Source of the DNA: Candidatus Shapirobacteria bacterium
GTDB lineage: Bacteria > Patescibacteriota > Microgenomatia > UBA12405
Length of the DNA: 64,000 nt
Reading direction: 5' to 3'
NCBI GenBank assembly: GCA_028704885.1
Contig: JAQWEN010000001.1
Coordinates: 651,203-715,202 of the forward strand
Position 1 is the first letter of the stretch. Each line of letters opens with the position of its first letter. The notes under the pieces were generated by a model. It was not told where the DNA came from. It made no database searches and saw only the letters and a program-made list of their open reading frames with translations. This document shows positions 10,309-64,000 of this stretch, one piece after another. Made by a program: the position numbers and the translations under genes.

Positions 10309-10331
10309 TTTGATCCTTTAAATATGCAGGA

Positions 10332-10356: not shown

Positions 10357-10404
10357 AGGGTTTAAACACTGCAAAATTATTATGAGTAGATTATACCAGA
10401 AAAA

Positions 10405-11262
10405 TTACAAATCGAGCTGTTTTAGAAGGTCTTTTTGGTGAGAATTTAGTTTGGTTGGAATTTCGACGAAAAGGCGGATATAGAAATCGCCCTGGCCATA
10501 ACCATTGACATCTTTAATTCCCTGACCTCGCAATCTGACTAAAGTATTGGGTTGAGTGCCTGGTTTAACTCGGACTTTTAAAGGATCTTTTAAGGTTGGA
10601 ACTTCGATAGTATCACCAAAAATGGCTTGAGTTAGACTAATATTGAAATTAATATAAACATCATTGCCTTCGCGTTTAAAAACTTTATCTGGTTGAACAT
10701 CAATATAGAGAACAAATTCAGAAAAACGGATTTTTTGACCATCATCAACACCAGCGGGAATTTTGATGGTTCTTTTGTGGCCATCAATAGAAACTTCTTT
10801 TTGACAACCATTGGCAGCATCTAAAAAAGAAATAGAAATTTTATAGGTTTCGAGACGTTTACTTTGTCTTTGTTGACCGCCAAAAGAGGCACCAAAAAAT
10901 TGTTCAAAAATATCAAAAGGATTAGAAAAACCACCAAAATCAAAATCGGCACCACCAAAAGGATTGCCACCAGTCTGGGTGTAAGTAAAATTGGGACCAT
11001 TTTGCTGAGTGTAAGTATGACCGCCAAAACCGCCTGAAGATGGGTCAAAAGCTGCATGGCCATATTGGTCATAAGCGGCTTTTTTTTGATCATTACTTAA
11101 AACTTCGTAAGCTTCATTAATTTCTTTAAAATGTTCTTCAGCATCAGGGGCCTTATTACGATCGGGATGAAATTTAAGAGCAGACTTTCGATAAGCGCTT
11201 TTTATTTCATCCTTACTGGCATCTTTGGAGACGCCTAATAACTCGTAAAAATCTTTTTTCAT
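10405..11262 (-). CDS. dnaJ: DnaJ-domain co-chaperone (J domain + G/F region + C-terminal substrate domains, no zinc finger; CbpA/class-B-like)
   Basis: J domain DFYELLGVSKDASKDEIKSAYRKSALKFHPDRN with the HPD motif. Gly/Phe-rich linker. No CxxCxGxG repeats. Last gene of the hrcA-grpE-dnaK-dnaJ operon. Confidence 0.85.
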   Translation of the reverse strand: MKKDFYELLGVSKDASKDEIKSAYRKSALKFHPDRNKAPDAEEHFKEINEAYEVLSNDQKKAAYDQYGHAAFDPSSGGFGGHTYTQQNGPNFTYTQTGGNPFGGADFDFGGFSNPFDIFEQFFGASFGGQQRQSKRLETYKISISFLDAANGCQKEVSIDGHKRTIKIPAGVDDGQKIRFSEFVLYIDVQPDKVFKREGNDVYINFNISLTQAIFGDTIEVPTLKDPLKVRVKPGTQPNTLVRLRGQGIKDVNGYGQGDFYIRLFVEIPTKLNSHQKDLLKQLDL

Positions 11263-36254: not shown

Positions 36255-37589
36255 TTATTTTTTTCTAAAAGAAAAAAGAGAGAAAGTAATAAATGATGAA
36301 GAAATTAAAAGTAAAATGATGGTTGGAGCTAAATTACCAGTAGTTGGAATACCTGAACTGGTACTTGGTTTACTAGTACGAACTGTTGGGACGGAAGTAA
36401 TAGTAGCGGTTTTAGCAGGAGTAATGATGGCTGTAGGGATTGCAGTAACAACAGGAGTGGTAGCGACTGTTGGAGCAATGGTGACTATGGGAGTAACAGT
36501 AGAAGATGCTGATGGTGAAGCTGAATAAGAAAGACTATTGTCGGCAGCCAGAATTGTAAATTTTTTAGAAATAATTTTATCAATACCATTATCTTTCACC
36601 GTAACAGTAATTGTATGTTCGCCTGGAGATAAATCTGCTGGAGGAGACCAATTCCAGGAACCGTCATCGTTAACAGTGACTTCACCAGTATAAACAGTTG
36701 GTGAATGAATTTCTATTTTAATAGTGGCTTTACTTGGGCCAGTACCAAAAAAGTCTGGTTTTTGGGTAGAAATTGATTCACTATCTTTTGGATTCAAAAT
36801 ATCTAATTCTTTAGAATTAGGAACTGGGGTAACTGAGGATAATGAACCAGTATTAGTTGCAGCATCAAAAGTAACTGGCAATGACGAAAATTGGTTTTGA
36901 CCTAAAATTATATCCGGAGTAGGATCATTTTGAGAAGTATTGGCATTAATTTGAGTGGTTTGTTTTTCTTGATCAATGACAATAATTTCCTCTGAAGTAT
37001 TATCAGTCGGAGTGAACCTGTTTGTTTTTGATTCATTGAAACTATTAGCTAAAGAAATATTCCAATTACCGGAAGTGGTTACTAAAGCGGATAAAGGTGA
37101 AGCATTAGGGATATTAATAAACACCATAACTTTACTGGCAGCTTTTAATTCTGGAGTAAAAACTCGACCCCAAGCTAAATTAGAAGAAGGTATCGAACCA
37201 TTTGGATTTGAAGCTGTTTCAAATTGATAAGTGGAACTTTTATATGTTTTTCCATCATTAATAAATGAATAATCATATTTGATTGAATTATCTAAGTTAT
37301 TAACATCAAAATAATGAATTTTACTTTTTTGGTCATTACTTAAAACAGCAGAATTACTGATAGTTTGATTATTTATTAATAAAGATGATAAACAAAATGA
37401 CTCGGTAACAAAGGAAATTGAGGCTGAATTGTTAGTAATATTAGTAACCTGAGGATTTATTGGTTGACAATCACCACTAGCCTTGGAAATAAAATTCGTA
37501 TTTTTATTAGTAAAAACAGCACCAGCAAAAATAGCACCAATTAATATAAAAAGCCCTAGAATAGTTGGTATTTTTTTTTCTTTAAGCAT
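36255..37589 (-). CDS. secreted surface protein with Ig-like domains, Thr/Pro/Val-rich stalk and C-terminal sorting-signal-like tail (IPTTG + TM + RKK)
   Basis: N-terminal signal/anchor. FN3/Ig-like blocks (KATIKIEIHSPTVYTGEVTVNDDGSWNWSPPADLSPGEHTITVTV). The C-terminus is PSTSSGIPTTGNLAPTIILLLISSSFITFSLFSFRKK. Confidence 0.55.
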   Translation of the reverse strand: MLKEKKIPTILGLFILIGAIFAGAVFTNKNTNFISKASGDCQPINPQVTNITNNSASISFVTESFCLSSLLINNQTISNSAVLSNDQKSKIHYFDVNNLDNSIKYDYSFINDGKTYKSSTYQFETASNPNGSIPSSNLAWGRVFTPELKAASKVMVFINIPNASPLSALVTTSGNWNISLANSFNESKTNRFTPTDNTSEEIIVIDQEKQTTQINANTSQNDPTPDIILGQNQFSSLPVTFDAATNTGSLSSVTPVPNSKELDILNPKDSESISTQKPDFFGTGPSKATIKIEIHSPTVYTGEVTVNDDGSWNWSPPADLSPGEHTITVTVKDNGIDKIISKKFTILAADNSLSYSASPSASSTVTPIVTIAPTVATTPVVTAIPTAIITPAKTATITSVPTVRTSKPSTSSGIPTTGNLAPTIILLLISSSFITFSLFSFRKK

Positions 37590-37925
37590 TTATGGTGTGG
37601 TTTTGTTTAATGTACCTGCGGATGTACTTGTAGGTGTGATTATTGGCTCAATTTGAATTGGATTTATAGTATCTTCTGTTGGTTTGAAAGATTTAATAAT
37701 TGAAAAATCAAAAGGTTCTTCTGTATTTTTATTTTTTGATTCAATAGTAGAAATAATAGATAAATCTAGTGTTGGATTAATCTCTTTTAATAAAACATTA
37801 TTTTCAACCAATGTCTGTGGTTTTTTAAAAGAAAAATAACTCTTTTGAACAATAGAGAAAAATATAGTTACAAAAGTAAGAAAAGATATAAAAACAAAAT
37901 AGGAAGTAATTCTATTTTTTTTCAT
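37590..37925 (-). CDS. hypothetical small membrane protein with Pro/Thr-rich tail
   Basis: Start chosen at MKKNRITSYFVFISFLTFV, which overlaps the pilO-like gene by 14 nt. The ORF-track start at 37997 would overlap 86 nt. Confidence 0.3.
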   Translation of the reverse strand: MKKNRITSYFVFISFLTFVTIFFSIVQKSYFSFKKPQTLVENNVLLKEINPTLDLSIISTIESKNKNTEEPFDFSIIKSFKPTEDTINPIQIEPIITPTSTSAGTLNKTTP

Positions 37926-38550
37926 TGTTGTTGGGTAAAAAATATAAATCACTGGAAAGACTAATTTTAATATTTTTTGAATTAGCTTGATTGACACTAT
38001 CTGAATTTATTTGATTAATTTTAATATTGACAGTGTTGGCCAAGCGACGATTATTAAATATTTTCTTTACCATTTCTAAAACTGAAGAATATTGACCTTC
38101 ACCATTTATGTTAACTTGATAAGATTTATAAAATTGATTTTTATTATTTTCTTCTTTGTCTAAATTTAGACTAATTTGATTTATGTCTAATGATGATTCT
38201 TTAAAAATGGTAGCTAAATTAGAAGTACCTTTATAATATTGACCAAGAGTAGGAAAACTGTCTTCAATTAGAGAATATTTTTCCTGCACCTTAGCGTATG
38301 ATTCTTGAGCTTTAATAACATTGGCAATTTTTGAATCAACTTTTTCGATAAAAGCCTCTTTAGACTTTATGTCTCCCATCAAAGAAAAAATAGTAGTCAT
38401 AGTCGGCATGATGGCAAAAAAGAGAAAAATAGCGATTAAAGTGAAAGTACCACCAATTTCCAAATATTTTAAGAATTTCTCATTTTCAGCCTGTTTACGA
38501 ATGTAACTATACATTGGTCGAAGCTGAAACCAGTTTTTAGTGTCGATCAT
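37912..38550 (-). CDS. pilO: type IV pilus assembly protein PilO-like
   Basis: N-terminal cytoplasmic segment, one TM helix (GTFTLIAIFLFFAIMP), a coiled coil and a C-terminal periplasmic domain. Follows the PilN-like gene with a 4-nt overlap. Confidence 0.45.
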   Translation of the reverse strand: MIDTKNWFQLRPMYSYIRKQAENEKFLKYLEIGGTFTLIAIFLFFAIMPTMTTIFSLMGDIKSKEAFIEKVDSKIANVIKAQESYAKVQEKYSLIEDSFPTLGQYYKGTSNLATIFKESSLDINQISLNLDKEENNKNQFYKSYQVNINGEGQYSSVLEMVKKIFNNRRLANTVNIKINQINSDSVNQANSKNIKISLSSDLYFLPNNNEKK

Positions 38551-39125
38551 ATTTTAGTAACTGCCTTGGTTGTTTTAAAAAATAAAGTAAGGGAAATGGA
38601 ATATTTATTTTCTTTTTCTTTCTTTTCTATTTTATTAATATCTACCTGATCAATGTCAGGATTTAGCATAAGGTTAGTAATAAAAGAAACTATACTTTCC
38701 TCTTTATATGCGGTTAAGGAAGTATCAATAACAGTTGATTTTATTTTTTCATCCCTGGAAACTGAAAGACTTTCATAAAATAAATCTTCGGGAGTACTTG
38801 TGATTAGTGAATTGATTTGGTTGCTATATTCTGGTTGATTGGAATAAAAATCCTTGATATAGCTTAGTCTTTGCTGTAATTGGACAAATTCTGTCTCAAA
38901 AGGAACAATGCTTTCCAACACTGCTTGTTTTTGACGAGCAATTTCGGAAAGATCAGAATTTTTACGATCTAACCAAAAACGAGAAATAAAAACAGAAATA
39001 ACAATTAGTTCGGTTAAAATTATAGTGACTCTACCGGTAGTAGTAATCCATTTGAAAAAACGAGCCCCAAATGATCTTGGGTTTTCGGATTCAGGTAAAA
39101 GAGAAATCTCTTTTTTTACAGCCAT
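38547..39125 (-). CDS. pilN: type IV pilus assembly protein PilN-like
   Basis: N-terminal ISLLPE (the INLLP-type motif), one TM helix and a coiled coil. 192 aa. Confidence 0.5.
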   Translation of the reverse strand: MAVKKEISLLPESENPRSFGARFFKWITTTGRVTIILTELIVISVFISRFWLDRKNSDLSEIARQKQAVLESIVPFETEFVQLQQRLSYIKDFYSNQPEYSNQINSLITSTPEDLFYESLSVSRDEKIKSTVIDTSLTAYKEESIVSFITNLMLNPDIDQVDINKIEKKEKENKYSISLTLFFKTTKAVTKI

Positions 39126-39142
39126 ATATTCAGTATATACGA

Positions 39143-40756
39143 CTATTTGCGGAAAATAAAATCCTTAAATTTAAAATAGTATTTTTGGTAATCTTTAACT
39201 TCTTCCAACTTTAAGAAGTTAACTGAAAATATGTAGGTAATTAAGCCAATAAATGAAGAAATCAGAGTTAAAGTTAGAACTGGAATAACATGGGTAGTAT
39301 CTAAAATAAAAAGATCTAGAAATTTAATAGATAACCAACTGCTAATCCCCATTAAAACTGCTGATATTGATATTTTGTAAAATTTAGTGAACATAGTAAA
39401 CCAATTAAAACCATCCACAATCTTAATAAACATAGTTAATAAACCAAAAAGCTGAATTAAGTTACCAACAGATGCACTAATAGCCAAACCAACAACACCG
39501 AGACTAGTAAAGTTAACAAAATAATAACTGGTAACAATATTTACAGCCAAGGAGATCATGGAGATAAAAAATGGAACTTTAGTATTATGAAGAGCATAAA
39601 ATGCTCTAATTAAAATTTGAATTACGGCTTGACAAATTATGCCGGGAACTAAAAAGGCTAAAATTTTGGAAGTTAAAATAGTGGCTGTCCAGGGAAACTC
39701 ACGAGATCCATAGAGAAGTCTAATAATAGAGACTCTTTCGACTAAAATTAAAATACTAATAGGAACAGCAATAAATAAACTTTGAATTATAATTCGATGG
39801 ACGGTAGTTCTAAAAGTGTTTAATTCATTTCGGGCGATGTTTTTTGAAAGAATTGGTAATGAAGCTTGACCAACAGTAGTACCAAAGATACGACTAGGCA
39901 AATACATAAATTGGAGAGCTAAATTTAGAAGAGAGATAGATCCAGAAGCTAAGGTACTGGCAAAAAAGAGAGTAACAGTATTTTCAATTTCACCCAAACC
40001 TAGGGATAAAATTCTGGGGATCATGAGACGAAAAATTTCTTTAACTCCACTTAATTTTGTCCTGATTATAGGGTAATAAACAAAACCCTGACGGCGGAGG
40101 ACGGGGACTTGAATGGCAAAATGAAAAAAGGCACCAACAACAGCGCCGATGGCAACTCCATAAATACCAAAAATTGGAGCTAGGGTAAAAATACTGATAA
40201 TAATGAAGAGATTGTAAATAATAGGGGTGAGGGCAGGAACAATAAAAACTTGATTAACTTGAAGAATGGCAGTGGCAAAATTACTAAGAAGAAAAAATAT
40301 TTGAGCAATAAGTAAAATTCGACTAAGACTGGCCATTAAAGATAGTTGATCCGGAGAAAAACCAGCAGCGATAAGGCTAGAGATTGGTTTAATAAAAATA
40401 AAAGCAATTATGGAAATAATTGTGAAGGCAATTAAAAGAAGATTAATAACAGTGGAAGCAATTTCGTCGGCAACTTTCTTATTTTTATGTAAATAATTCG
40501 AAAAAACTGGGATAAAAGAGGCTGACAGAACACCGGTAACTAATAATTTAAAAATTAGGTCGGGAAGGCGAAAAGCGGCATTATAAACATCGAGTTGGGC
40601 TAAACAGCAGGAAAAAAACTTAGCATATAAAAAACGATTTCTTAAAAGACCAAGGATTGAAGAAAGACCAAAAGCTATGGCTAAAACTAAAGAAGCTGAC
40701 AAAATGGTACTTTGTTTTTTTTGACTTATTAGCTGAATCCTCTCTTTAAAGGTCAT
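39143..40756 (-). CDS. murJ: lipid II flippase MurJ (MviN family)
   Basis: 537 aa, 14 TM helices. N-terminal LSASLVLAIAFGLSSILGLLRNRFLYAKF and RLPDLIF blocks typical of MurJ. Confidence 0.85.
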   Translation of the reverse strand: MTFKERIQLISQKKQSTILSASLVLAIAFGLSSILGLLRNRFLYAKFFSCCLAQLDVYNAAFRLPDLIFKLLVTGVLSASFIPVFSNYLHKNKKVADEIASTVINLLLIAFTIISIIAFIFIKPISSLIAAGFSPDQLSLMASLSRILLIAQIFFLLSNFATAILQVNQVFIVPALTPIIYNLFIIISIFTLAPIFGIYGVAIGAVVGAFFHFAIQVPVLRRQGFVYYPIIRTKLSGVKEIFRLMIPRILSLGLGEIENTVTLFFASTLASGSISLLNLALQFMYLPSRIFGTTVGQASLPILSKNIARNELNTFRTTVHRIIIQSLFIAVPISILILVERVSIIRLLYGSREFPWTATILTSKILAFLVPGIICQAVIQILIRAFYALHNTKVPFFISMISLAVNIVTSYYFVNFTSLGVVGLAISASVGNLIQLFGLLTMFIKIVDGFNWFTMFTKFYKISISAVLMGISSWLSIKFLDLFILDTTHVIPVLTLTLISSFIGLITYIFSVNFLKLEEVKDYQKYYFKFKDFIFRK

Positions 40757-52043: not shown

Positions 52044-52809
52044 AAAGATTTATTTTTTGTTTTTTGGAATTGTTGTATTTGCGGCCAGTGAGGGCTTTGG
52101 AAAGAGCTTCACGGTATGCAATTTTGGGTAAAGTGTCTTTATTCTTTTCCAAATAATCTAATAGTTCATCTTGGTGAAAAGCGACTAAAGATCGAAGCAA
52201 CCAAGAAACGGCTTTAGTAATTAAAATTTCTTTTTCTGATTTAAGATTCTCAATATTTTGAAAAGCTAATTTGGATAAACGCGGATCGTCAGATTGACGA
52301 AGTGATTTAGTTAATAAAACTAGAGAAGCACGGCGTTTGTTAATATTGCGGTCTTGATTGAATTGTTTTAATATTTTTTGCCAGTTTGACCAATTATTAA
52401 GAATAATTTCACTGGTAAAATTTGATTGGCATAAAACATCATTTTCTGCCCAACCACAGGTGTAATTTAGCCATAAATCTAGATTTTTGGGATCAAAATC
52501 TTTTAGAGTTTCTGAAGATAATGACAAAATCATAGGACCAATAACAATTTCGGTATAACTGGTATTGTTTTGATAAAGAGAATTGAGTAATTCGATAATC
52601 TGATCTTTTTTTAGATTATTTTCGGTGATTATTTTTTTGGCCAAGTCAGATATCTGTTTAGTGGAAAAGCCGTGATAAGTTTTATTGGTTCCAATATATT
52701 TTTGACCAAAAGCAATATTCAATCTCTCTAAATCTCTCTTTAACAAGAGAGATTTTTCAAGTTCAGAAATATCTTTTAGAATTTGAAGATGGATTGGATT
52801 TTTAATCAT
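52042..52809 (-). CDS. DNA alkylation repair protein (AlkD/AlkC-like HEAT-repeat glycosylase family)
   Basis: C-terminal ILITKAVSWLLRSL...LPKIAYREALSKAL resembles AlkD (FYVRKAIGWVLRELS...LSGLSVREASKYL). The W-x4-W...D.L block LDLWLNYTCGWAENDVLCQ is present. The ATG at 52809 is preferred over the TTG at 52830. Confidence 0.6.
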   Translation of the reverse strand: MIKNPIHLQILKDISELEKSLLLKRDLERLNIAFGQKYIGTNKTYHGFSTKQISDLAKKIITENNLKKDQIIELLNSLYQNNTSYTEIVIGPMILSLSSETLKDFDPKNLDLWLNYTCGWAENDVLCQSNFTSEIILNNWSNWQKILKQFNQDRNINKRRASLVLLTKSLRQSDDPRLSKLAFQNIENLKSEKEILITKAVSWLLRSLVAFHQDELLDYLEKNKDTLPKIAYREALSKALTGRKYNNSKKQKINL

Positions 52810-53407
52810 TTTTGAGAGTACTGATAACAACTAAACGTTTTAAAGTGGTTCCTGGAGGCCAACAAGTCATTAAAGTGAGTTGATTTTGGCCGATTTTACT
52901 TGACATATAATTTAATTCATTGCCATTAATAATTTTTGTTTCATTAACAGTGTAAATATATTTTTGAGATTGATAATAAACAATAATTTCATCCCCTGTT
53001 TCTAATTTATTCAAAAGATAAAAGACGGCATTAAATTGATTGGCTTCATACCAATTACCAGCAGAATGGGCAAAAATAAAAGTGTTGCCGGATTTATCAG
53101 GGGTAGAAGTATCTTTGGCATGAGCAACCCCCTGAGTTAGAGCTCGTTGATAAATTTTAGAATTAAAAGGATCAACATTTTTAATAACTTTAGCATTGGC
53201 GTTAATTTTGGGAATAATAATGGAAAAGTCAAGATTAATTGGGACAATTTCAGTAGGTTTATCGGTTTTTTTATCTAGTTGATAAATTATTTCCGATTTT
53301 AATACTGGAGCAAAAGTAGAGACGGGAATTGTTAAAGAAATAAAAATAAAAAGAATTCCAACTAGAATAAATTTATTTCTTTTTATTCCTAATTTTTTTG
53401 ACAACAT
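52802..53407 (-). CDS. sortase (class A/E-like transpeptidase)
   Basis: N-terminal membrane anchor. Catalytic TLxTC as QLTLMTCWPPG, a His region (TFIFAHSAG) and an Arg (TTLKRLVVI). Immediately downstream of the giant surface protein. Confidence 0.72.
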   Translation of the reverse strand: MLSKKLGIKRNKFILVGILFIFISLTIPVSTFAPVLKSEIIYQLDKKTDKPTEIVPINLDFSIIIPKINANAKVIKNVDPFNSKIYQRALTQGVAHAKDTSTPDKSGNTFIFAHSAGNWYEANQFNAVFYLLNKLETGDEIIVYYQSQKYIYTVNETKIINGNELNYMSSKIGQNQLTLMTCWPPGTTLKRLVVISTLKND

Positions 53408-56400
53408 AACCAATTATAAACAAAACCAGAAGAGCTACTAGAGCCGAAGAGAATTTGTGACGGCTAATGAATGACTGGAATTGAGTGGAAAAACTTTTTG
53501 GATTTGGAGTTTCGGTACCTAAAATTGAGCCTTCTTGGTTTTCATCAGAAATGGCTTCTTGATCGATTTCTGACCCGTCTTTAGGAATATTATCGTCGCC
53601 AATAACCGGAATGGCACCGAGTACACTACCGGTAGTGGTTGTGGTTGTAGAAGTATAGACGGTAATAAAATCACCAGCTAGACCGCTGCCGTTGCCTGCT
53701 TCATCAAAGGCACGTATAACGTAATAATAGGTTTTATTACAGTCGGGAACATTAACGTCGGTAAAACTTCCTTTTTGATCGGGACTTATACCAACTTGAC
53801 CAATCTGGGAACCAGAGTCAGCAATAAATTTAGTGACATCAGCGCGATAAATTCTAATTATATTAGTTTTACCGTCATTGCTAGCCTTGAAACTGATTTT
53901 GTAATTACACCCCTCTCTCTCTTTGGAATAATCATTTGGAGTACCAGGACCAGAACTATCATAATCAACAGCCACAGAATCACTGCGATATTCTTCTCCA
54001 CCAGAGGAAGCGATGGCATAGAAATAATAGGTTTTTTCACTTTCAGTGAGCGGATTATTTTCTAAATTACATTCACCGGAATTACCACCAGCTTTGACAT
54101 CAACCGTGCCAATTTGAATTTCACTGGAATCGGGATTGACCTTAAAACATTTGACAGTTAAAGGTCGATTAAGAATATCAAGAGCGGTAAAGCTAAGAGT
54201 AAATTTGTCTTTATTAGTTGGAGAAATTGGATTTTCAACGCTAATAAAAATATTACTACTTTGAACAGCATTGGCAGCCTTGACGGAGAAAAGTGAAACT
54301 AAACTAATGAGGGTAATAATAATTAGACTTTTCATAATATTTTTTTCTTTTTTTAATCCGTAAATTATAAAACCAATGCCCAACAAGGATAAAATACCGA
54401 AGATAATCATCCAAACGGTCTGAGCACCAGTACCAGGCATTTCGGTGGTGGCACCAAGAACTTGGCCTTCTTCTTTGACAATATTAACGTCTTGGCTGGC
54501 AAAAACTGGATCAATTTTAATTTGAGTGCCAACGAAAGTAGAAGCTAAATAACCTGGAGCAATAGCGCTGGCTAAAAGTTTGTCAGAACTTTCAAGTGTA
54601 CATTCTTGGCTGTCTTGACAACCATAAGCCCAAGCGGCGTCTTTGTAGGTGCCAGGGTCGACAGAATTATCGATGGTGGCAACATATTTAAGAGTAACAA
54701 CATCGTCTTTATTAAGATCACCGATTTGCCATTTACCTGGAGAATGATAGACAGGTTCAGGAATCGATCTTTCAGTTCCATTAATTAAAACTTTCCAACT
54801 ACCGGCTTTATAAGTAAAGCCAAATGGTGGCAAATCTATAACTGAAACTCCTTTTATATTATTTTCTTGGACATTAAGAGTAATTGTATATTCAACTTCG
54901 GAACCATTGGTTTGAGCAGTTGGCCAACGATTGTTGGTTTTAGAAATTGTGAGTTTAGCAGGAACTTTCCAATTGATAAAGTTTACTGATTTGGATTCAC
55001 CGCTAGTGACTGTTATTGTAATATCATTATCTGATTTAAGTTTATAAGCAGAGGGAATATTTATTTCTGACAAAGTGTAAGTTCCTGGATTTAGTTTATA
55101 AACAGCTGGAGATAATTCGGAAAAATTACTATTTTCTTGACCCGTAACAGAAGTAGTAAATACATTATTATCTTCAATCTGTTGTCCAAGATTATCTAGA
55201 ACATCTTTATTAACAGTGACGGTAGCTTTTTGATAATTACCGATGTAACAAGTTTTATTTGCTCCAGCACTAATTATTAATCTATTGCTTGGGGATGATT
55301 GAGCTAATACTTCGCCCACTTTAAATATATCTTTTAAATTAAAAGCAGCTTCTCCTGGTGGAGTTGGAGTGGGAGTAGGATTGCTGGAACGATTAGTACA
55401 TTTAATGTCGGTTACACCACTAACACCACACCAATTACCCCAATCCCAATCGATGCTTCCTCTGTTGTAAAACAAATGGCAATTATTAAATTGCGTACAA
55501 GGTCTGTCTTCTCCATATGAAACTAGACTGTCATATCCATTTACTTCGCAAGCCCAAAGAGCACAGGTGGCGGCATCTCCACAACCATTCCAACCTCCGC
55601 AATTTCCGTGATGTCCATAAGCCTCTCCTGTTTTAGTAATTAAAACACCAGGGCCATTATCTTCGCAATATATATTGGATTGATACCAACCTTCCTGCAT
55701 ATTTTCCCCTAGAACATACTCTCCGGGAATTAAGCTAAAGATTGTTTTTCCAGTTTCGTCAGTTTTTTGAGTGGAACCAGTAGTATTCTGATCCATAGTA
55801 ATATCCCAATTTGGCAAATAAGGTTCATTTTTATCATGTTTTCCATTACCGTTAAGATCGTTAAATTTATAGACAACTACTTCACCTTTTTGTTGATTGC
55901 CGAAATTATATTCGTGACCTTCCACATAATTTAAACTTGAAGGAAATTCATTAGAATTATCATCCGGTAAATTTATGACATGACAATTGTCATTTTGATT
56001 TAGTGGATACGTTTGAATCCAACCATTTTGTAAAACTTCACAGACTTTGTATTGTCCAGGCAAAAGATGTTCAAACCAATACCAACCAAAGTGAAATTGG
56101 GTACTATCGGTGGTTGTTGATTTTAAAGGAATTGACTCAAACCCACCATCATCGTTAGATTCATAAAGATTAATGGTCCAATCGGAAAGCAAAGACTCTC
56201 CAATTCCGACAGTTGGCCCACCACTAGCATTCATATCACTCCATTTGTAACCATGAATAGTACCATTGGGAGTATTATAAAAAGTACAAATCGTATTTGT
56301 GTCTTTATAAACATCTACACTATCAACACTATCTGTGTTGTCAAAAGTACCATTTTCAAGACCGCAATTAGCACTGAATAAATCGTAGCCATTTTGTTTT

Positions 56401-59400
56401 GTTTCAATTACAGTGTATTCACCTGTTTTTAAATTTGAGAATATTTTTGTTCCATTGGCATCGGTTACGTCGGCAGAGGCATCGGTTGTATCAGCTCCTG
56501 TGCCATCGACATCAAACTGCCAATTTCCGGCAGATGTTTGATCATTGGTGGTATAAAGATCACCATCTATATCAATAATTTTATTAACAGTAATCGAGCC
56601 GGTGTCGCGGGTGTTGGTGATAGTACAAGTACCGCCTTCAGTATGAACATTTAAAGTAATAACTTTGGTTGATGGGTCCATTGAACAAACACCAGAAGCT
56701 CCGGTTAAAGTATAATTTGAGGCACCAGATTCAGTGACGGTGTAAGAACCAGTATCGTAAGTTTTAGTATCACCATCTTTGGCGGTTTCTTGACCGGAAA
56801 TAGTAAAAGTCCAATCAGTGTCTTGGGCAGAACCACCAAGAACAACTTTATCGAATTTAATATCGCCTGTTTTACGCGTATTAGTGTAGATACAAATAAT
56901 ATGTTGATCTTTGGCAACTGAAACACTATCATTGGCGCCAATGGAAATTACTGGTTCGGTATCGTTTGTGCCATTGTTATTGACATCGTTAAAACAAGAA
57001 AGTGGAGAAGCGGTGTAATTATCTAATCCATTAGTTTCGGATAAATAATAAGTACCAGTAATAACATTATTTTGGCCAGTTGATAAAGGTATAGCTCCGT
57101 TAATTCCGGTTTGTTGAGAATCAATATCACTTCCACCGGAAACTGTACCAATCTTAAGAGTTGTTTGACCACCATTACCTGACCAAGATTTTATTAATTC
57201 GATGGTTCCAGTGTCACGAGCATTAACAAAAGTACAAACTACATTTGCGTTTTCACCGATACCAACTACATGTCCACTAGCAGAATCAAATTCGTATAAA
57301 TCTCCAGTACATGAAATTGATACTTGGTGAAAATTTGTTTTAGGAGTTTCAGAAATAAAATGATTTCCTGTTACTGCTGTTATGGCAGAATCACCAGTAT
57401 AACCAGAATGAGCATATTCAGGAACTCCTAACCAACTAGTTTGCCATTGCCAATCAGTGGCTCCGGTTTCACCAGCATCGGTATAATCACCATCACCGTT
57501 TAAATCGACATTTTTTAAAACTCTTAAAGTGCCTGTCTTTCGGGTATTTGTAATAGTACAAGATTTGACATCTCCGGGAGCCAGAGTAATAGCGCCATTT
57601 GAGGCACAATCACCAGTAATGGCCTTATTATAGTCAGGGAAATTGGCACCAGTATTGTCATATTCAGAAACGACATAGTTTCCGGCATTAAATCCATTTT
57701 GAACGCCGGTTAAAACAGTAGTTGCTCCAACTTTTAGAGTAAATGAAGAAGCGGGCTTTGAATCCCCAACTACAATTTTGGTGACAGTAAGTTTTGGCTG
57801 AATATCATTATTGGTAATTGAACAAACAGTAGTTTGGCCAAGACCAAGTGTTATTTCACTGTTTCCATTTACAATAATTCCATTTGTACAAGTCCAAGCA
57901 CTGGCACTATAACCTGAAGGGCCGGATTCAGATAAAGTATAAGTACCAACTTTAAAGGATGATCCGCTAATAACATCGGTACTTCCAGATGCACCATGAC
58001 CTGATAAAGTACCAGCTGGTCCACCATTGGCAGTCAAAGTCCATGCTGATTCAAGAGCAGTACTTCCATTATCTTTTATTAAAATTTTATTTAAAGTTAA
58101 AGATGGAGCAATATCATCATTAGTGATAGTACAGGTTTTGCTTTGACCTAAACCAACAACAACATTACCTTGAGTATTGCAATCTCCTCCCCAATTACCA
58201 GCAGAATAACCCAAAAGATTGGTTTCGCCGACGAGGTGAGAGCCAGGATTGACAGCATAAGTAACTTCATCAAAAACAGGATTACTATCCACAGTAAGTT
58301 TAAAATCGTTTGGCTCAGCAATACCACCGTTATTATTAATTACAGTTTTATTAACAATGAGATAGGATTGTTGATCATCATTAGTAATGGTACATTTTTT
58401 AGTTTCACCTAATTTAACAGTAACTTTACCATCTAAACCACAATCCATTCCCCAAGTTCCGGCAGTGTAACCGGAAAGATTAATCTCACCGACAGTGTGT
58501 TCACCTGGGTTAACAGCATAAGCAATTTCGTCTAAGACAGCATTACCATCAACAGTTAGTTTAAAATCATCAGGTTTAGCTGATCCACCATTATCATTAA
58601 CAACTGTTTTGTCGACAATAATATAAGACTGCTGATCATCATTAGTAATAGTACAAGTAATATCTTGCCCTTCGCTTAGAGTTACAGTGTCACCTAAATT
58701 AGCAGGACAACCGGTACCACTAATTGAGACAAAGGAATAACCAACTAAACCAGTTTCATTAATAGCATATGGAATATTAGATTTAATAGAATATTTTTGG
58801 CTAGAATTAACTAAGGTTCCATCAATACTTAGTCCAAAGTCGTTAATACCAGCAGTACCACCATTATTGTTAATAACATTTTTGATTAAAGTAATTGAAG
58901 AAGCAATGTCGTCGTTGGTGATTGTACATGATTTATCGTCACCTAAGGCCAGAGTGATGGAACCATCTGGGGCGCAGGCACCACTGATAGTCGAAGAATA
59001 ACCTGGTTGATTAGTTTCGCTAATTTTATAATTACCAACATTAAATCCATTTTCTTGGCCGCTAGTAACTTGAAGGGAACCGACATATAACGGAAAATCA
59101 GAAACAACTTTGGTGCCGCCATTATCATTAACTACAATTTTAGTGACAGTTAGTTTTGGTTGAATTGGGGTATTGGTAATGGTACAAGTTATACTTTGTC
59201 CTAAAGATAGGGTTAAAATATTTCCAGTTGGAGTGGCGCCGCCAGTACAATCCCAAACTGAAGAATTAGTGCCGGTTGGACCACTTTCAGATAAAGTGTA
59301 AGTACCAGCTAAAACATTGCCAGTAACACTGCCCTGCCCTACTAAAGACGAACCGGTGCCAATAGCTGATAGTGTCCAACTACTGGGAGTATATCCACTA

Positions 59401-62400
59401 TTGTAAGTATCAGTCCAGCTTTTGATTAAAGTTAAGGTTGGAGCGATATCATCGTTAGTAATAGTACAAGTCTTATTTTCACCAGCAGCTAAAGAAACAG
59501 TACCGTCGGCAGCACAGTCTCCTCCCCAATTACCAGCAGAATAACCGGTTAAGGTTGTTTCACTGGCGGTGTGAGAAGTTAAAGAAACTGTTTGAGCAAC
59601 TTCCCAAGGAACATTATTACCATCAATTCTGGCTTGAAAATCATTGATAACTGCAGTTCCACCATTATCATTTACAACAGTTTTTACTAAAGTAAGAGTG
59701 GCGTCTTTAGTATTAGTAAAAGTACAAGTAACAGTTTCGCCTGGGTCTACACGGAAGATTGCTGACCTTGTGGGTAAATCAAATAGACTTGGATTTACCG
59801 ATGAGCCATCGTCGCAAGATATATCAGTCAAATTCCAACCTATTTTTAATGATTCTTGTGATGCGTAATCATAATTGGTCAAAGCATTATTTATCTCTAA
59901 ATTTCCATTGTTGGTACTAATAGTACCTGCAACGTCTCCGGTAAAATCAAAACTGTCGGTTCCGCCGACCATCACTTTTTTAACAATAATTTTTCCAAGT
60001 TTAGTATTGGTGATATTGCAATATTTAGTTTCACCGGCGCCAATAACAACATTCTGACAAGTATCGCCAGTTTTAGACCAACCAGTAGGAACGGTTTCGG
60101 TAACAGAATAGGTACCTGGAGTGACTTCATAATCTTTATCAACTGTATTTGATATTGTCTGTTGGGTTGTATCGATGGTTCCGGTTCCGCTTGCTGTAAT
60201 AAAAAATGATGCAGAATCTGCAGGAATAGTGGTTTTCTGAACAATTAAATGACCTTTTTGTTTAGTATTGGTAAAAGTACAAGTAATATTTTCTCCCGGT
60301 TGCAGAGAAATTGCGGTGATTGGGCTGCCGTCACTACAAACGGCGCTGGTTTGAGTCCAACCGGCAACTGCACCTTCTGAGACAGAGAAGGTTCCCGGCA
60401 TTAAGTTACTAAAGACTTTAGTATTTGATAATGTTGCATCAGAATTGTCGTCGAGTGAAAAATTAGACAAACCACTACCGGTGGTGGTGAAACTGAAATC
60501 TTGAGGATCATTGGGAACAGCGTCTTTAATAATAGTTATTGAGCCTTTATTAGTGGTATTGTAAAAGTTACAAGTAATAATACTGTCGGCAGTTACGGCA
60601 ATATCTTTAACACCCGGATTGGTTGGATCTGTTACACCGCTGGTACAAGTGGCATGATCAAAGGAGTAACCAGAGGGAATAGAAACTTCAGAAATAGAAT
60701 GATTGCCAACACTTAATGTTCCACTGGCTACCTGACCATTGGTGTCAGTAGTTAATGTGGTGGTGCCATCAATTTTAAATGACCAAGTTTGACCGTCACT
60801 TTTTTGAACACCATCAACCCATTTATTGACACTTATTTTTCCTCCACAGGTTTGTTTAGCAAAGGTGGCTAATTGGGCGGCGAGACCGGAAAAATCAGTA
60901 GTAATAACATCGGAAGTTAAAACACTACCAGTATTTACATTATGTCCAGAAATGGCTTTTAAATTTTCAACACTTAATTCATTTCCAATACCTAAAGTAA
61001 GAACTCTTCTTCCAGCTGTTTTAGCAATATTAGCTTTACCTACGGCAGCATTTAGAGCGGTTGATTCATTGGCACCACAGCCTGATCCATTAATAATGGT
61101 ATTTGGATTACCATCGGAAGCAAAAAGAATTAAATCTGGTTTATCAGCTCTACCTCCAAAGGTACCATTGGCTTTAAAAATACTATCGTCCCAATTGGTG
61201 CAGTCTCCGCCTCCAGCAGAATTAATTTTAGTTTTAACGGCGGTAAAATCAGAAGTAAAAGGTTGAAGTATGTCTGCGGTCGTGTCAAATTGAGTAACTG
61301 AAAATTGAGTTGGAGTACCATTGAGAGCATCGACGAAACCGGTAAAAGCAGATTTCATTTGATTTAGCTCAGTATTATTAATACTTCCAGAAACATCGAT
61401 AACAATAGCAATATCAAGACCACAGACTTGGGAAAGAGTTGGATTAGTGACAGGAGCTGGAGTAGTTGATTTGACTTCAAAAGTGGCAATACCTGTTTCG
61501 GTTTTACTGGTTGGGGCATTACAATTTGTAAGGCTATCATATTTTGTAATTTCAGCTTTCCAATTAGTGCCAATCGGAGCGGCGCCGTCGAGAGTATAAG
61601 AACCCTTCAGGGAAGTAACCCCGGTGGTACATGGAGCGGATGAATGTCTGGTTGTCCCATTTTGTTCAATAATATCAACACGATAAAATTTGCTCGCTGT
61701 TAGACTAGTAGAATTTATATAGACAGTATCTCCTTGCAGATAAACTGATTCTGATAGAGTTATTCCTAAATCGGCATAAGTAGCGATAAAGATAGTGAAA
61801 TGGTCAATAGAAACGGCTTTGACGGTGTCGCCGGATTGTTCGATTTTGGAATCTTCAATCTTATTAATATCAAAAAAAGATAAATCAGATTTGGCTTCGT
61901 CAATAGATTTTTCGATGTAGGAAATTTCGGCAGTAGAATCGACTGGTTTTGGAAGAGTAACATCGTATTCAAAATCACCGTCTTTCATACCAGTGGTGAT
62001 GTCAAAAGCATATTCACCGACACTACCCATAGTGTCTGGAAGAACTAAATCGGCGGTTTTAATTTTTTGGATTTTTAGCGAGGTGCGCAAAGATTCATCT
62101 TTGGGAAGACATTTAAAAGTAATTGAAACTTTATTTTTTTGAGGATAAATATATTTAACTCCAAGCTGAACCTTGCCTTTGGTTTCAGAAATTCCGGTGG
62201 TGTCATTAATAATCCATTCTTCATTGGTAGTATCTTTTATTTGTTCATCAGTGAGACAAACTTTTTCAAAAACAGTACCTAAAACTGGGGCTTCGGTTGG
62301 AGTGGATTCTGGAGTTGGAGTGTTCTCTGGAACGGTTATTATTTCTGGAGCTGGAGTGATACTAACATCTAAAACTGGAGCAGTCGGTTCTATTACTATG

Positions 62401-62711
62401 ATTGGACTTGGTTCTGGAGTTATTTCGGGAGTGACTTCAAGAGTAACTTCTGGTGTTATTTCAGGGATAATTTCTGGTGTGACTTCAGGAGTTATTTCTG
62501 GACTTGGAATTATTTCTGGGGTTGGGGTTATTTCAACAATAGCTGGGGCTTCGGGGGCTGGAGTTGGTTCAACAATGACTTCTTCGACAGCAGGCGCTTC
62601 TTGGGCATAAACAGGTTGGACGGCCAGCAAAAAAGGCACGAAGGAATTAAAGAGGAGGGAAACATTTGCAAGAATAGCAACAAACTTTCTTGCGACACCT
62701 AATTTGATCAT
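53373..62711 (-). CDS. giant cell-surface protein: signal peptide, Pro/Glu/Thr-rich spacer, vWA domain, about 15 tandem beta-sandwich repeats, Cys-rich module, DUF11-like domain with sorting-signal-like segment, FN3-like C-terminal module with TM anchor
   Basis: About 3112 aa from the ATG at 62711 (MIKLGVARKF...). The ORF-track TTG at 62738 gives 3121 aa. Spacer repeats PEITPEVTPEIIPEITPEV. vWA MIDAS motif IAIVIDVSGSIN...ASDG. Repeats end in C-T-[IF]-T-N. Internal segment TEMPGTGAQTVWMIIFGILSLLGIGFIIYGLKKEKN. Terminal TM SALVALLVLFIIGYVVKKIRNKKK. Confidence 0.8.
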   Translation of the reverse strand: MIKLGVARKFVAILANVSLLFNSFVPFLLAVQPVYAQEAPAVEEVIVEPTPAPEAPAIVEITPTPEIIPSPEITPEVTPEIIPEITPEVTLEVTPEITPEPSPIIVIEPTAPVLDVSITPAPEIITVPENTPTPESTPTEAPVLGTVFEKVCLTDEQIKDTTNEEWIINDTTGISETKGKVQLGVKYIYPQKNKVSITFKCLPKDESLRTSLKIQKIKTADLVLPDTMGSVGEYAFDITTGMKDGDFEYDVTLPKPVDSTAEISYIEKSIDEAKSDLSFFDINKIEDSKIEQSGDTVKAVSIDHFTIFIATYADLGITLSESVYLQGDTVYINSTSLTASKFYRVDIIEQNGTTRHSSAPCTTGVTSLKGSYTLDGAAPIGTNWKAEITKYDSLTNCNAPTSKTETGIATFEVKSTTPAPVTNPTLSQVCGLDIAIVIDVSGSINNTELNQMKSAFTGFVDALNGTPTQFSVTQFDTTADILQPFTSDFTAVKTKINSAGGGDCTNWDDSIFKANGTFGGRADKPDLILFASDGNPNTIINGSGCGANESTALNAAVGKANIAKTAGRRVLTLGIGNELSVENLKAISGHNVNTGSVLTSDVITTDFSGLAAQLATFAKQTCGGKISVNKWVDGVQKSDGQTWSFKIDGTTTLTTDTNGQVASGTLSVGNHSISEVSIPSGYSFDHATCTSGVTDPTNPGVKDIAVTADSIITCNFYNTTNKGSITIIKDAVPNDPQDFSFTTTGSGLSNFSLDDNSDATLSNTKVFSNLMPGTFSVSEGAVAGWTQTSAVCSDGSPITAISLQPGENITCTFTNTKQKGHLIVQKTTIPADSASFFITASGTGTIDTTQQTISNTVDKDYEVTPGTYSVTETVPTGWSKTGDTCQNVVIGAGETKYCNITNTKLGKIIVKKVMVGGTDSFDFTGDVAGTISTNNGNLEINNALTNYDYASQESLKIGWNLTDISCDDGSSVNPSLFDLPTRSAIFRVDPGETVTCTFTNTKDATLTLVKTVVNDNGGTAVINDFQARIDGNNVPWEVAQTVSLTSHTASETTLTGYSAGNWGGDCAADGTVSLAAGENKTCTITNDDIAPTLTLIKSWTDTYNSGYTPSSWTLSAIGTGSSLVGQGSVTGNVLAGTYTLSESGPTGTNSSVWDCTGGATPTGNILTLSLGQSITCTITNTPIQPKLTVTKIVVNDNGGTKVVSDFPLYVGSLQVTSGQENGFNVGNYKISETNQPGYSSTISGACAPDGSITLALGDDKSCTITNDDIASSITLIKNVINNNGGTAGINDFGLSIDGTLVNSSQKYSIKSNIPYAINETGLVGYSFVSISGTGCPANLGDTVTLSEGQDITCTITNDDQQSYIIVDKTVVNDNGGSAKPDDFKLTVDGNAVLDEIAYAVNPGEHTVGEINLSGYTAGTWGMDCGLDGKVTVKLGETKKCTITNDDQQSYLIVNKTVINNNGGIAEPNDFKLTVDSNPVFDEVTYAVNPGSHLVGETNLLGYSAGNWGGDCNTQGNVVVGLGQSKTCTITNDDIAPSLTLNKILIKDNGSTALESAWTLTANGGPAGTLSGHGASGSTDVISGSSFKVGTYTLSESGPSGYSASAWTCTNGIIVNGNSEITLGLGQTTVCSITNNDIQPKLTVTKIVVGDSKPASSFTLKVGATTVLTGVQNGFNAGNYVVSEYDNTGANFPDYNKAITGDCASNGAITLAPGDVKSCTITNTRKTGTLRVLKNVDLNGDGDYTDAGETGATDWQWQTSWLGVPEYAHSGYTGDSAITAVTGNHFISETPKTNFHQVSISCTGDLYEFDSASGHVVGIGENANVVCTFVNARDTGTIELIKSWSGNGGQTTLKIGTVSGGSDIDSQQTGINGAIPLSTGQNNVITGTYYLSETNGLDNYTASPLSCFNDVNNNGTNDTEPVISIGANDSVSVAKDQHIICIYTNTRKTGDIKFDKVVLGGSAQDTDWTFTISGQETAKDGDTKTYDTGSYTVTESGASNYTLTGASGVCSMDPSTKVITLNVHTEGGTCTITNTRDTGSITVNKIIDIDGDLYTTNDQTSAGNWQFDVDGTGADTTDASADVTDANGTKIFSNLKTGEYTVIETKQNGYDLFSANCGLENGTFDNTDSVDSVDVYKDTNTICTFYNTPNGTIHGYKWSDMNASGGPTVGIGESLLSDWTINLYESNDDGGFESIPLKSTTTDSTQFHFGWYWFEHLLPGQYKVCEVLQNGWIQTYPLNQNDNCHVINLPDDNSNEFPSSLNYVEGHEYNFGNQQKGEVVVYKFNDLNGNGKHDKNEPYLPNWDITMDQNTTGSTQKTDETGKTIFSLIPGEYVLGENMQEGWYQSNIYCEDNGPGVLITKTGEAYGHHGNCGGWNGCGDAATCALWACEVNGYDSLVSYGEDRPCTQFNNCHLFYNRGSIDWDWGNWCGVSGVTDIKCTNRSSNPTPTPTPPGEAAFNLKDIFKVGEVLAQSSPSNRLIISAGANKTCYIGNYQKATVTVNKDVLDNLGQQIEDNNVFTTSVTGQENSNFSELSPAVYKLNPGTYTLSEINIPSAYKLKSDNDITITVTSGESKSVNFINWKVPAKLTISKTNNRWPTAQTNGSEVEYTITLNVQENNIKGVSVIDLPPFGFTYKAGSWKVLINGTERSIPEPVYHSPGKWQIGDLNKDDVVTLKYVATIDNSVDPGTYKDAAWAYGCQDSQECTLESSDKLLASAIAPGYLASTFVGTQIKIDPVFASQDVNIVKEEGQVLGATTEMPGTGAQTVWMIIFGILSLLGIGFIIYGLKKEKNIMKSLIIITLISLVSLFSVKAANAVQSSNIFISVENPISPTNKDKFTLSFTALDILNRPLTVKCFKVNPDSSEIQIGTVDVKAGGNSGECNLENNPLTESEKTYYFYAIASSGGEEYRSDSVAVDYDSSGPGTPNDYSKEREGCNYKISFKASNDGKTNIIRIYRADVTKFIADSGSQIGQVGISPDQKGSFTDVNVPDCNKTYYYVIRAFDEAGNGSGLAGDFITVYTSTTTTTTGSVLGAIPVIGDDNIPKDGSEIDQEAISDENQEGSILGTETPNPKSFSTQFQSFISRHKFSSALVALLVLFIIGYVVKKIRNKKK
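56600..60650 (-). repeat. about 15 tandem ~265-bp (about 88-aa) domain repeats inside the giant surface-protein gene
   Basis: Periodic recurrence every 260-275 bp of the antisense motif ...atcatcattagtaatNgtaca... (encoding C-T-I-T-N-D-D). Adjacent units are near-identical, e.g. QSYIIVDKTVVNDNGGSAKPDDFKLTVDGNAV vs QSYLIVNKTVINNNGGIAEPNDFKLTVDSNPV. Confidence 0.7.
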
Positions 62712-62823
62712 ATATAAGATTAATCTTGGGCAGACCAAATTTATAATAGTATCTACAAAGAGTATATTACTTTTTTATAGGAATTCAAGTCGAGCTGAAG
62801 ATAAACTTAATATGTTTTTATTA

Positions 62824-64000
62824 TTAAGCTTTTTTAGATTTTATTTTTATTAATATAGGAATTAATCCAGATAAAATATTACCAATCCAAAAATAATTAC
62901 ATAACCAGCTAGGACCAAAACAGCAGTGAGATTTTAATAAACGACTATCAATAAAATATGTTGTTAAAGAAATTATTATGGGAATTAAAATATCTTTAGT
63001 TGGAAGTCTGAAATAAATTAAATTAATTAAAAAAGCGACAATAAATAAAAGAGGTAACCAATGTTTAGTACAAGAGGAATCTTGAGAACCTAATATTTTT
63101 GGTTCTTCAATTGAATTGTTTTCAGTGGTATCTCCTAAAACATTTGGTTGAAAACCGGTGGGAATGATATTGGTTGGAGTTACAGTGGCACCGGGATTAA
63201 TACAATATTCGGGAGTGCGACCGCCGGGCATACAACCATTTAAACTACGAACATAAAAACAATATTGAGCCCCTGGAGTTAAACTGCCAACGGTGTAAAA
63301 ATCTTCATTACCAACATTAGGATTACCGTAAATATAGTTGTTGGGATTTGGTCCATAAGCAATCAAATAACCAGTATGCGGGGAAGTTGAATGAGTCCAA
63401 TGGAGGGTAATTGACCCAGAAGAATTCGCGACAGCATAAAATCTAGTTGGAGCAGTGGGGACCGAATTAGTACACTCAGCAGTGCCTTGATTTGAAGATG
63501 GATTATCAGAAATACTTGATAAAACATCCCCTGTTTCTTCATCGCATTCGAAATTAAAATTAATGCCAAAATTAGTATTGAGATTTTGATAAACATTAGT
63601 GGCCTCTGAATCGAAAGTTACTGACCATAAATAACTATTTTTTTTATCTTTATTGACATGACCAAGCGAGACTACTGGTTTATTTGGATCTAATAAATCG
63701 CTTAAAGAATAATTTACTAAACTATAATCGTTTTCATTATTAGTGGCTAAAATATTGATAAGAATTTTTTGAGATAAAACATCTGGAATCTGACTACTGG
63801 AAACAGCTTTAAATTTTAATTGACAGGGAGCATTACGATTATTGTCAATATAAAAATTCTGAGATTTAGTAAAGCCTGGATAAATATTGGTTTCGTCAAA
63901 AAGGGGTAATTCTGAACTTTTAGTACATTCTGAACCAGAATTACAAGTAATGGTTATGTCGTTTCCGGCAAAAATTGGTTTAGATAAAAAAAGAGAGAGA
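62824..64000 (-). CDS. FN3-domain-containing membrane-anchored protein (5'-partial; N-terminus lies beyond the window end)
   Basis: The frame is open from 64000 down to the stop at 62824. The ORF track starts it at an internal TTG (63366). The upstream in-frame translation gives a textbook FN3 block ...VPTAPTRFYAVANSSGSITLHWTHSTSPHTGYLIAYGPNP...YTVGSLTPGAQYCFYVRSLNG. The C-terminus has 3 hydrophobic segments. Confidence 0.55.
   Translation of the reverse strand, partial: LSLFLSKPIFAGNDITITCNSGSECTKSSELPLFDETNIYPGFTKSQNFYIDNNRNAPCQLKFKAVSSSQIPDVLSQKILINILATNNENDYSLVNYSLSDLLDPNKPVVSLGHVNKDKKNSYLWSVTFDSEATNVYQNLNTNFGINFNFECDEETGDVLSSISDNPSSNQGTAECTNSVPTAPTRFYAVANSSGSITLHWTHSTSPHTGYLIAYGPNPNNYIYGNPNVGNEDFYTVGSLTPGAQYCFYVRSLNGCMPGGRTPEYCINPGATVTPTNIIPTGFQPNVLGDTTENNSIEEPKILGSQDSSCTKHWLPLLFIVAFLINLIYFRLPTKDILIPIIISLTTYFIDSRLLKSHCCFGPSWLCNYFWIGNILSGLIPILIKIKSKKA

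Follow-up and report, generated by a model that had tools for sequence, protein, structure and literature searches.

A large adhesin-like protein and a membrane protein encoded in one reading frame around an internal LPXTG-type sorting signal, next to a sortase gene of Candidatus Shapirobacteria

The stretch of DNA analysed here (the window) comprises 64,000 nucleotides of a genome of Candidatus Shapirobacteria, members of the Microgenomates within the candidate phyla radiation (CPR), and corresponds to positions 651,203 to 715,202 of contig JAQWEN010000001.1 (assembly GCA_028704885.1). Close to the end of the window, on the minus strand, lies what is probably a dedicated chromosomal sortase cassette, in which an adhesin and a second membrane protein are encoded in one frame, the LPXTG-type sorting signal is internal, and the product would be processed by sortase and signal peptidase. 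The cassette appears to be composed of three parts: a very large and variable adhesin-like passenger ending in a conserved stalk (...FVGT...VLGA-S/T-T-x-LPxTG), a 320 amino acid membrane protein with two FN3/Ig-like ectodomains and a C-terminal transmembrane (TM) helix, called the module in the following, and a membrane-anchored sortase. As the adhesin and the module share one reading frame, the signal composed of MPGTG, a first TM helix (TM1) and the basic residues KKEK is internal. The coordinates of all features are given in Table 1.

The giant open reading frame (ORF) encodes 3112 amino acids. The minus-strand open frame spans 53373..62738 and translation probably begins with the ATG at 62711 (MIKLGVARK...), the homolog at the related locus L002 having an identical start. 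The same 3112 amino acid sequence has two NCBI accessions, annotated for Candidatus Shapirobacteria as one 'VWA domain-containing protein'. TEMPGTG, the TM helix and KKEK occupy residues 2758-2792 of the 3112, and 320 residues follow in frame, so that 351 residues separate MPGTG from the stop codon and the signal does not have the C-terminal position of an LPXTG signal. After MPGTG there follow, in order, TM1, a short basic loop, a second helix (TM2) which resembles a signal peptide and has an AxA site, two FN3/Ig-like domains, a linker, a third TM helix (TM3) and a basic tail. The DNA at the junction of adhesin and module reads TTAAAAAAAGAAAAAAATATTATGA and contains an A7GA7 tract; TM2, with AxA at its end, has the sequence MKSLIIITLISLVSLFSVKAANA and begins directly after the loop residues NI. 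The generic sorting signal model TIGR01167 (LPXTG_anchor) scores 24.8 bits on EGQVLGATTEMPGTG...KKEK, against a cutoff of 15.9. The first-pass annotation, made by reading the sequence, had listed two sorting-signal-like tails, this one and an IPTTG in a 444 amino acid protein encoded elsewhere in the window. Both motifs exist, but that of the giant protein is not C-terminal, and the 320 residues beyond it had been omitted from the domain list.

The rest of the giant protein is largely as that annotation had it. The signal peptide and the PE(I/V)TPE spacer of a giant secreted protein can be read in the translation, and about 280 residues to which no domain was assigned separate the spacer from the VWA domain. 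For the latter an intact metal ion-dependent adhesion site (MIDAS) had been claimed; both VWA models exceed their cutoffs and the DVSGS signature is found, while the remaining Thr and Asp of the site were placed by eye only. The array which follows is covered by Pfam stretches of SpaA_2 (n=9, 307.9 bits), SpaA_4 (n=3, 115 bits), SpaA (n=3, 71.5 bits) and SdrD_B (n=2, 36.4 bits), and 17 domain ends of the form C-x-[IFV]-x-N recur at a spacing of about 87-100 amino acids, which makes the earlier count of about 15 repeats a fair one. The Cys-rich segment and the DUF11-like domain were both recovered. Scanned separately, the N-terminal 290 amino acids, the Cys-rich segment and the module gave no Pfam match, and the NCBIfam scan of the whole ORF gave none in these same three regions. 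By comparison with relatives the passenger appears to be modular and variable. The adhesin of L002 (2693..10035) has the N-terminus and the C-terminal stalk found in the window and a different middle, in which repeated Cys-rich 'CDG...C' units take the place of the VWA domain and where a run of Ns marks a scaffold gap. A Cys-rich block, GHHGNCxGWNxCGDAxTCALxACxxNGY...PCTQFxNCxLFYN, is kept between the adhesins of the window, L002 and L085, whose passenger domains otherwise differ.

Beyond TM2 the module consists of about 200 well-folded residues followed by a disordered Thr-rich linker and the TM3 anchor. Its 88 homologs are nearly all standalone proteins of 305-335 amino acids, and comparison of its fold returned generic tandem FN3/Ig matches only.

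The sortase matches PF04203 (E=3e-23, 82.2 bits against a cutoff of 26.6) and TIGR01076 (58.1 bits against 39.35), is the single sortase of the window and has 2366 homologs, many of them from metagenome-assembled genomes (MAGs) of Microgenomates. It is 100% identical to a protein of a Candidatus Shapirobacteria MAG, and the recognition of a sortase gene overlapping the 3' end of the giant gene, and hence of a sortase-linked adhesin locus in a CPR bacterium, was sound. A catalytically dead enzyme would have spoken against that annotation, and the sequence gives no sign of one: His114, Cys182 and Arg191 align with the residues of solved sortases and do not vary among 120 homologs. Of the class-specific NCBIfam sortase models (C, D, E, F and GN) none reaches its cutoff, the best being the class C model NF033745 with 63.6 bits against 160. 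In Foldseek comparisons the fold is that of a sortase; class C enzymes come out on top (E about 1e-11) and classes A and D follow closely. Class C sortases are recognised by a lid which precedes the beta-barrel and bears a DP(F/W/Y) anchor, and by a C-terminal TM helix. The AlphaFold2 (AF2) model of the window sortase (mean pLDDT confidence 81) has a helix at residues 7-46 and then only about 14 residues before beta1; it contains no lid ahead of beta1 and no C-terminal TM helix, the protein ending right past the Arg strand, and the conserved DPF at residues 79-81 follows beta2 and is not in the lid position. Judged by its triad the sortase is intact, and on the models it appears to lie outside the defined classes, closest to class C yet failing the features which define it.

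Table 1. Features of the cassette and of the 444 amino acid protein in the window (positions in the window).
Feature	Position	Strand	Basis or remark
Giant ORF, 3112 amino acids (adhesin precursor with in-frame module)	53373..62711	-	translation, Pfam
N-terminal signal peptide, MIKLGVARKFVAILANVSLLFNSFVPFLLAVQPVYA	62604..62711	-	translation by reading; same start in L002 homolog
Pro/Glu/Thr-rich spacer, PE(I/V)TPE-like	62262..62603	-	translation by reading
VWA domain with DxSxS (DVSGS) MIDAS start	60936..61415	-	PF00092 39.5 bits, PF13519 40 bits
About 16 prealbumin-like SpaA/SpaA_2/SpaA_4/SdrD_B beta-sandwich domains	55662..60914	-	Pfam
Cys-rich module (GHHGNCGGWNGCGDAATCALWAC...)	55386..55616	-	also in L002 and L085; without Pfam match
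DUF11 (PF01345)	54630..54953	-	29.2 bits against cutoff 24.6, segment scanned alone
MPGTG, LPXTG-type sortase motif, conserved EGQVLGATTE directly before	54426..54440	-	motif scan, TIGR01167
Peptide representing the MPGTG sorting motif, ATTEMPGTGAQT
TM1, hydrophobic part of the sorting signal, QTVWMIIFGILSLLGIGFIIYGL	54354..54422	-	hydrophobicity
Basic loop KKEKNI (predicted cytoplasmic), encoded by TTAAAAAAAGAAAAAAATATT	54336..54353	-	translation; without stop codon
Module, 320 amino acids	53376..54335	-	separate gene in many relatives; without Pfam match
TM2, signal-peptide-like, ends ANA	54267..54335	-	within module
Module beta-sandwich domain 1	53961..54251	-
Module FN3-like domain 2	53673..53936	-
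TM3	53400..53453	-	then tail KKIRNKKK
Sortase, 201 amino acids, N-terminal TM helix	52802..53407	-	overlaps giant ORF by 35 nt
Catalytic His114	53066..53068	-	FAHS
Catalytic Cys182	52862..52864	-	LTLMTC
Catalytic Arg191	52835..52837	-
444 amino acid Ig-like-domain protein	36255..37589	-	candidate second substrate
IPTTG of the 444 amino acid protein, then hydrophobic stretch and RKK	36336..36350	-

In order to compare the cassette with those of relatives, mostly species-representative genomes were scanned with one conserved peptide pattern of the module, which returned 78 loci from Shapiro-, Davies-, Gottesman-, Levy-, Collier-, Roizman-, Chisholm- and Woesebacteria, Dojkabacteria and others. 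Among the 73 classifiable loci, window included, adhesin and module are fused in frame in 48 and split in 25, the module being in the latter a separate overlapping gene. Fused or separate, the module is placed between adhesin and sortase across the Microgenomates, and 76 of 81 loci have an adjacent sortase gene, which lies downstream in 72 of them and upstream in 4. In the split loci L003, L004/L005 and L006 the module gene overlaps a large SpaA-repeat gene by 4 or 8 nt, the sortase gene comes next, and the SpaA-repeat gene ends with LPxTG, a TM helix, a basic tail and a stop codon. The loci sampled via the sortase (L002 and L085-L088) are all fused, with 346-355 residues past the motif. In the fused loci examined (n=44) the loops between TM1 and TM2 measure 3-15 amino acids with 2-7 Lys or Arg and almost no Asp or Glu, and an AxA-like site, as defined by a lenient -3/-1 expression, follows TM2 in 42 of the 44. 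A tree of the modules implies, as a rough figure, at least six changes between the fused and the split state, the closest neighbour of the window being the split locus L003. The adhesin and the module are always overlapped or fused, beside the sortase, and this strict coupling suggests a 1:1 functional partnership, in which the module may be a partner or scaffold of the reaction between adhesin and sortase.

Two side observations concern these loci. A-rich Lys codons are found at the one-base difference between fused and split arrangements in the window (54336..54353, A7GA7), in L002 (9075..9095, A7) and in L003 (390..402, A7), and they are a possible hotspot of slippage or phase variation. 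Many third-party annotation MAG records which carry the cassette (L009-L011, L015, L018, L020-L022 and others) are titled 'uncultured Gammaproteobacteria', 'Pseudomonadales' or 'Thermococci', titles which look taxonomically unreliable.

For the fused precursor we infer the following course. The passenger would be exported via Sec until TM1, crossing from outside to inside, halts the transfer, and the short Lys-rich loop would remain cytoplasmic. TM2, crossing from inside to outside and probably a former signal peptide with its AxA site, would restart export so that the module comes to lie outside, anchored in the membrane by TM3 with its basic tail inside. The sortase would cut MPGTG between Thr and Gly, giving an acyl-enzyme with the adhesin, which would be passed to a nucleophile, most simply lipid II/peptidoglycan; this is taken as the default acceptor because MurJ and a LysM protein are encoded in the window. 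Signal peptidase would probably cut after TM2 and free the N-terminus of the module. Fused and split genes would in this way give the same mature products, in which case frame changes of plus or minus one in the A-rich Lys codons would be nearly neutral, and this would fit the repeated switching between the two states.

The motif itself is ordinary. At the orthologous position of related loci LPxTG is found in 61 of 67 signals (LPATG in 32) and MPxTG in 6 of 67; L085 carries MPGTG, L086-L088 carry LPATG or LPGTG, and a G-x-VLGA-S/T-T stretch always precedes the motif. On these counts Met at P1 is a minor variant, within a subclade, of canonical LPXTG. The headline of the first-pass annotation, a non-canonical recognition motif specific to the lineage, is thus borne out neither by the orthologs nor by the TIGR01167 match, and it is not what makes the locus interesting. 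Two fused loci, L057 and L075 (module at about 10001..10700), have LTKTG and LAVTG instead of LPxTG and no sortase gene within 10 kb; they may have changed over to a signal of the LAxTG type, on which a sortase from another part of the genome would act. The idea that the motif decays where the sortase is lost (L057, L075, L076 and L077) was withdrawn, since L076, L077, L079 and L081 have the sortase upstream and the signals of L057 and L075 resemble LAxTG.

The 444 amino acid protein is encoded directly downstream of MurJ, PilN, PilO and a 135 amino acid ORF, in the same direction (36255..40756, minus strand). It belongs to a family of 2240 representatives (E <= 1e-3), which share near the C-terminus, ahead of a TM helix, the consensus P-S-T-x-S-G-[VI]-P-x-[TS]-G-N-x-x-P-T. 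P1 is Val in 30 members, Ile in 23 and Leu in 12, Pro and Thr also occurring; P4 is Thr in 35, Ser in 34 and Ala in 14 of 93; and the basic Lys/Arg tail is absent in 35 of 119. Neither TIGR01167 nor any NCBIfam C-terminal sorting-domain model matches the tail of the window protein. Its IPTTG is an instance of another conserved motif, [VI]Px[TS]G, and the tail should not count as evidence for a shared non-canonical motif; as judged from its sequence the protein is a possible second sortase substrate. The conserved PSTxSG[VI]Px[TS]GNxxPT with its TM helix may be an undescribed processing or anchoring signal of CPR C-termini.

Several other explanations of the locus were weighed. A sortase with a lineage-specific specificity other than LPXTG, namely [IM]PxTG, might process both the giant and the 444 amino acid protein. 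These two proteins carry the only signals of the form xPxTG, hydrophobic stretch and basic tail found outside polytopic proteins in the window, MPxTG occurs again in six related loci and in L085, and the sortase stays below every class-specific cutoff. We nevertheless hold this specificity to be improbable, given that LPxTG prevails among the orthologous signals beside sortases of the same family, that MPGTG passes the generic LPXTG model which the 444 amino acid tail fails, and that the family of the latter varies at P1 and P4 and often has no basic tail. A different doubt concerns the fusion, which might be an artefact of an extra A in the A7GA7 tract, introduced by assembly or sequencing and joining two genes that really overlap by ATGA. 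With one A fewer at the junction the adhesin would end in ...KKEKIL or ...KKKKIL, with the TGA stop overlapping the ATG of the module, as in the split junction of L003 (...SKKIKL and stop, ATGA overlap), and L002 is likewise a single A away from an 8-nt overlap; since the loss of one A would restore the ATGA overlap, sequencing error was a serious possibility. It was discarded and is in our view extremely improbable: the junction is identical and in frame in L085, an independent ENA assembly with a sortase 90% identical to that of the window, as well as under the two NCBI accessions; the 48 fused loci come from many projects, L086-L088 being fused too; and the Met at the junction is absent in 20 of the 44 fused loci examined. 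ATG being the only start codon considered, this absence also speaks against a module that is translated on its own. It bears on slippage as well, whereby transcription or translation slipping on A7GA7 would yield two products, a fusion by read-through and an adhesin which terminates after a canonical signal at its C-terminus, the module being in the latter case translated by coupling from its own ATG. Two A7 runs do lie exactly at the junction, the TGA stop of the +1 frame overlaps the retained ATG, and the Met is kept in the window, in L002, in L085 and in 24 of the 44 fused loci. However, runs of A are expected from Lys codons at about 30% GC, A7 is short for efficient slippage, and many fused loci have no Met and differ in loop sequence, so that slippage seems very unlikely.

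A more elaborate alternative is a pilus-like pairing, in which a class C-like sortase links the Thr of the adhesin to an amine of the module, for instance that of a Lys; the module would be the acceptor in place of peptidoglycan, and its TM helix would anchor the complex. The top sequence and structure matches of the sortase are class C enzymes, a stoichiometric partner would fit the strict 1:1 coupling of adhesin and module beside the sortase, and domain 2 of the module has at its start a near-invariant Y-x-K motif (YSKE, Lys138), with Lys in 71 of 73 loci. As an acceptor resembling that of a pilin motif Lys138 is however weakened by its replacement with Arg in L009 and L037, both of which keep LPxTG and sortase, and the other invariant residue, K201, is invariant by construction, since it falls inside the retrieval pattern. 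Besides, the sortase has neither the lid nor the C-terminal TM helix of class C and scores far under the class C cutoff, no pilin motif or E-box protein is encoded nearby, and the fold of the module is that of a generic FN3/Ig tandem. We therefore judge the pairing unlikely. Similarly small is the chance we give to a broader proposal, that the module is an obligate partner of the sortase reaction of Microgenomates, either the covalent acceptor or a membrane scaffold receiving the adhesin; the precursor would then be a polyprotein which is split and re-joined in a new topology, distinct from anchoring to lipid II or peptidoglycan.

The reading we prefer remains that of a sortase cassette with an internal sorting signal, and some points weigh against it. 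The single module peptide pattern used for retrieval biases which cassettes are seen. The tree behind the switches is a neighbour-joining tree rooted at the midpoint, so their number and direction are approximate. Topology and the signal peptidase site were judged from hydrophobicity, charge and the lenient -3/-1 expression. Anchoring to peptidoglycan is an assumption, the envelopes of CPR bacteria being poorly characterised, and the role of the module is a guess, its fold matches being generic.

The cassette is flanked by ordinary chromosomal genes, among them those for DNA-alkylation repair, a DEAD helicase, Nramp, POR, MurJ, DnaK and GatB, and no Rfam family reaches its gathering score on either strand of the 64 kb. 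Upstream of the cassette a gene at 62824..64000 (minus strand), which continues past the end of the window, codes for a secreted protein that has an FN3-like domain and, at its C-terminus, a Cys-rich hydrophobic region of several helices; the gene is absent upstream of the cassette in L002, L087 and L088. Among the window ORFs of at least 100 amino acids the pattern [VI]LG-x(1-3)-T-[TE] occurs three times only, each time just ahead of a membrane anchor. The three surface proteins concerned are encoded side by side: NVLGDTTE occurs in the upstream FN3 protein, QVLGATTE-MPGTG in the adhesin (54441..54470, minus strand) and SILGTET-PNPK in the module (53472..53500, minus strand), whose tail resembles a sorting signal minus the LPXTG.

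Parts of this arrangement are familiar. In its inferred working it resembles classical LPXTG/sortase surface display, and a VWA adhesin of tip-like kind and SpaA-type domains are also found in class C pilus loci. With the LPXTG proteins of Gram-positive bacteria and their class A-type housekeeping sortases the locus shares the Sec signal peptide, SpaA/CnaB-like stalk repeats, an adhesive VWA domain, a pentapeptide followed by hydrophobic and basic residues (TIGR01167) and a membrane-anchored Cys transpeptidase fold with His, Cys and Arg. Here, in contrast, the signal is internal, with 351 residues beyond the motif, the sortase gene is dedicated to one substrate locus which it overlaps, the enzyme falls under all class cutoffs, and the envelope of the host, a CPR bacterium, is uncharacterised. 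The class C pilus sortases, in particular SrtC1 of A. oris (2xwg), SrtC1 of group B Streptococcus (3tbe) and SrtC of C. perfringens (6ixz), are the best sequence and fold matches; in their loci, too, the sortase is clustered with a SpaA-domain protein bearing VWA, and their substrates tolerate variation at P1 (I/V/Y-PxTG). The present sortase differs by its 63.6 bits against the cutoff of 160 and, in the AF2 model, by the missing lid before beta1 and C-terminal TM helix, and the cluster differs by containing one LPXTG substrate only and lacking a shaft pilin that bears a pilin motif or E-box. The dedicated systems of marine proteobacteria (class GN sortase, TIGR03784, and VIT/VWA target, TIGR03788) likewise have one sortase per VWA target gene, but the matches are weak and below cutoff (31.8 bits against 158.25 for TIGR03784, 14.4 against 551.65 for TIGR03788), domain architecture and host lineage differ, and no module intervenes in the marine system.

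A sortase family, fam000526, has been reported as near-ubiquitous in Microgenomates among CPR genomes (Meheust et al. 2019, PMC6744442), so that finding a sortase here is not in itself new. The accessible sections of that report give presence and absence only, with no mention of LPXTG or adhesins, and describe neither substrate nor module nor the cassette in its fused or split form. In the portions of the literature covered by our search we found no description of an internal LPXTG signal, of this cassette, or of sortase substrates and anchoring in Microgenomates. The features which set the locus apart, on the evidence of its sequence, are the internal signal, a conserved and un-annotated FN3/Ig membrane protein which is always encoded between substrate and sortase or fused to the substrate, a sortase without class, and the lack of a shaft pilin.

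The locus is a concrete and widely conserved cassette of substrate, partner and sortase in ultra-small, probably host-attached bacteria, and in the internal use of LPXTG the sortase would act as a processing protease on a two-part precursor. If this is true, the adhesins which a large CPR group chiefly displays by sortase, candidates for attachment to the host, would be identified, sortase biology would gain in the module a previously undescribed conserved family, and the precursor would provide a natural case of a sortase tag that is internal and splits itself.

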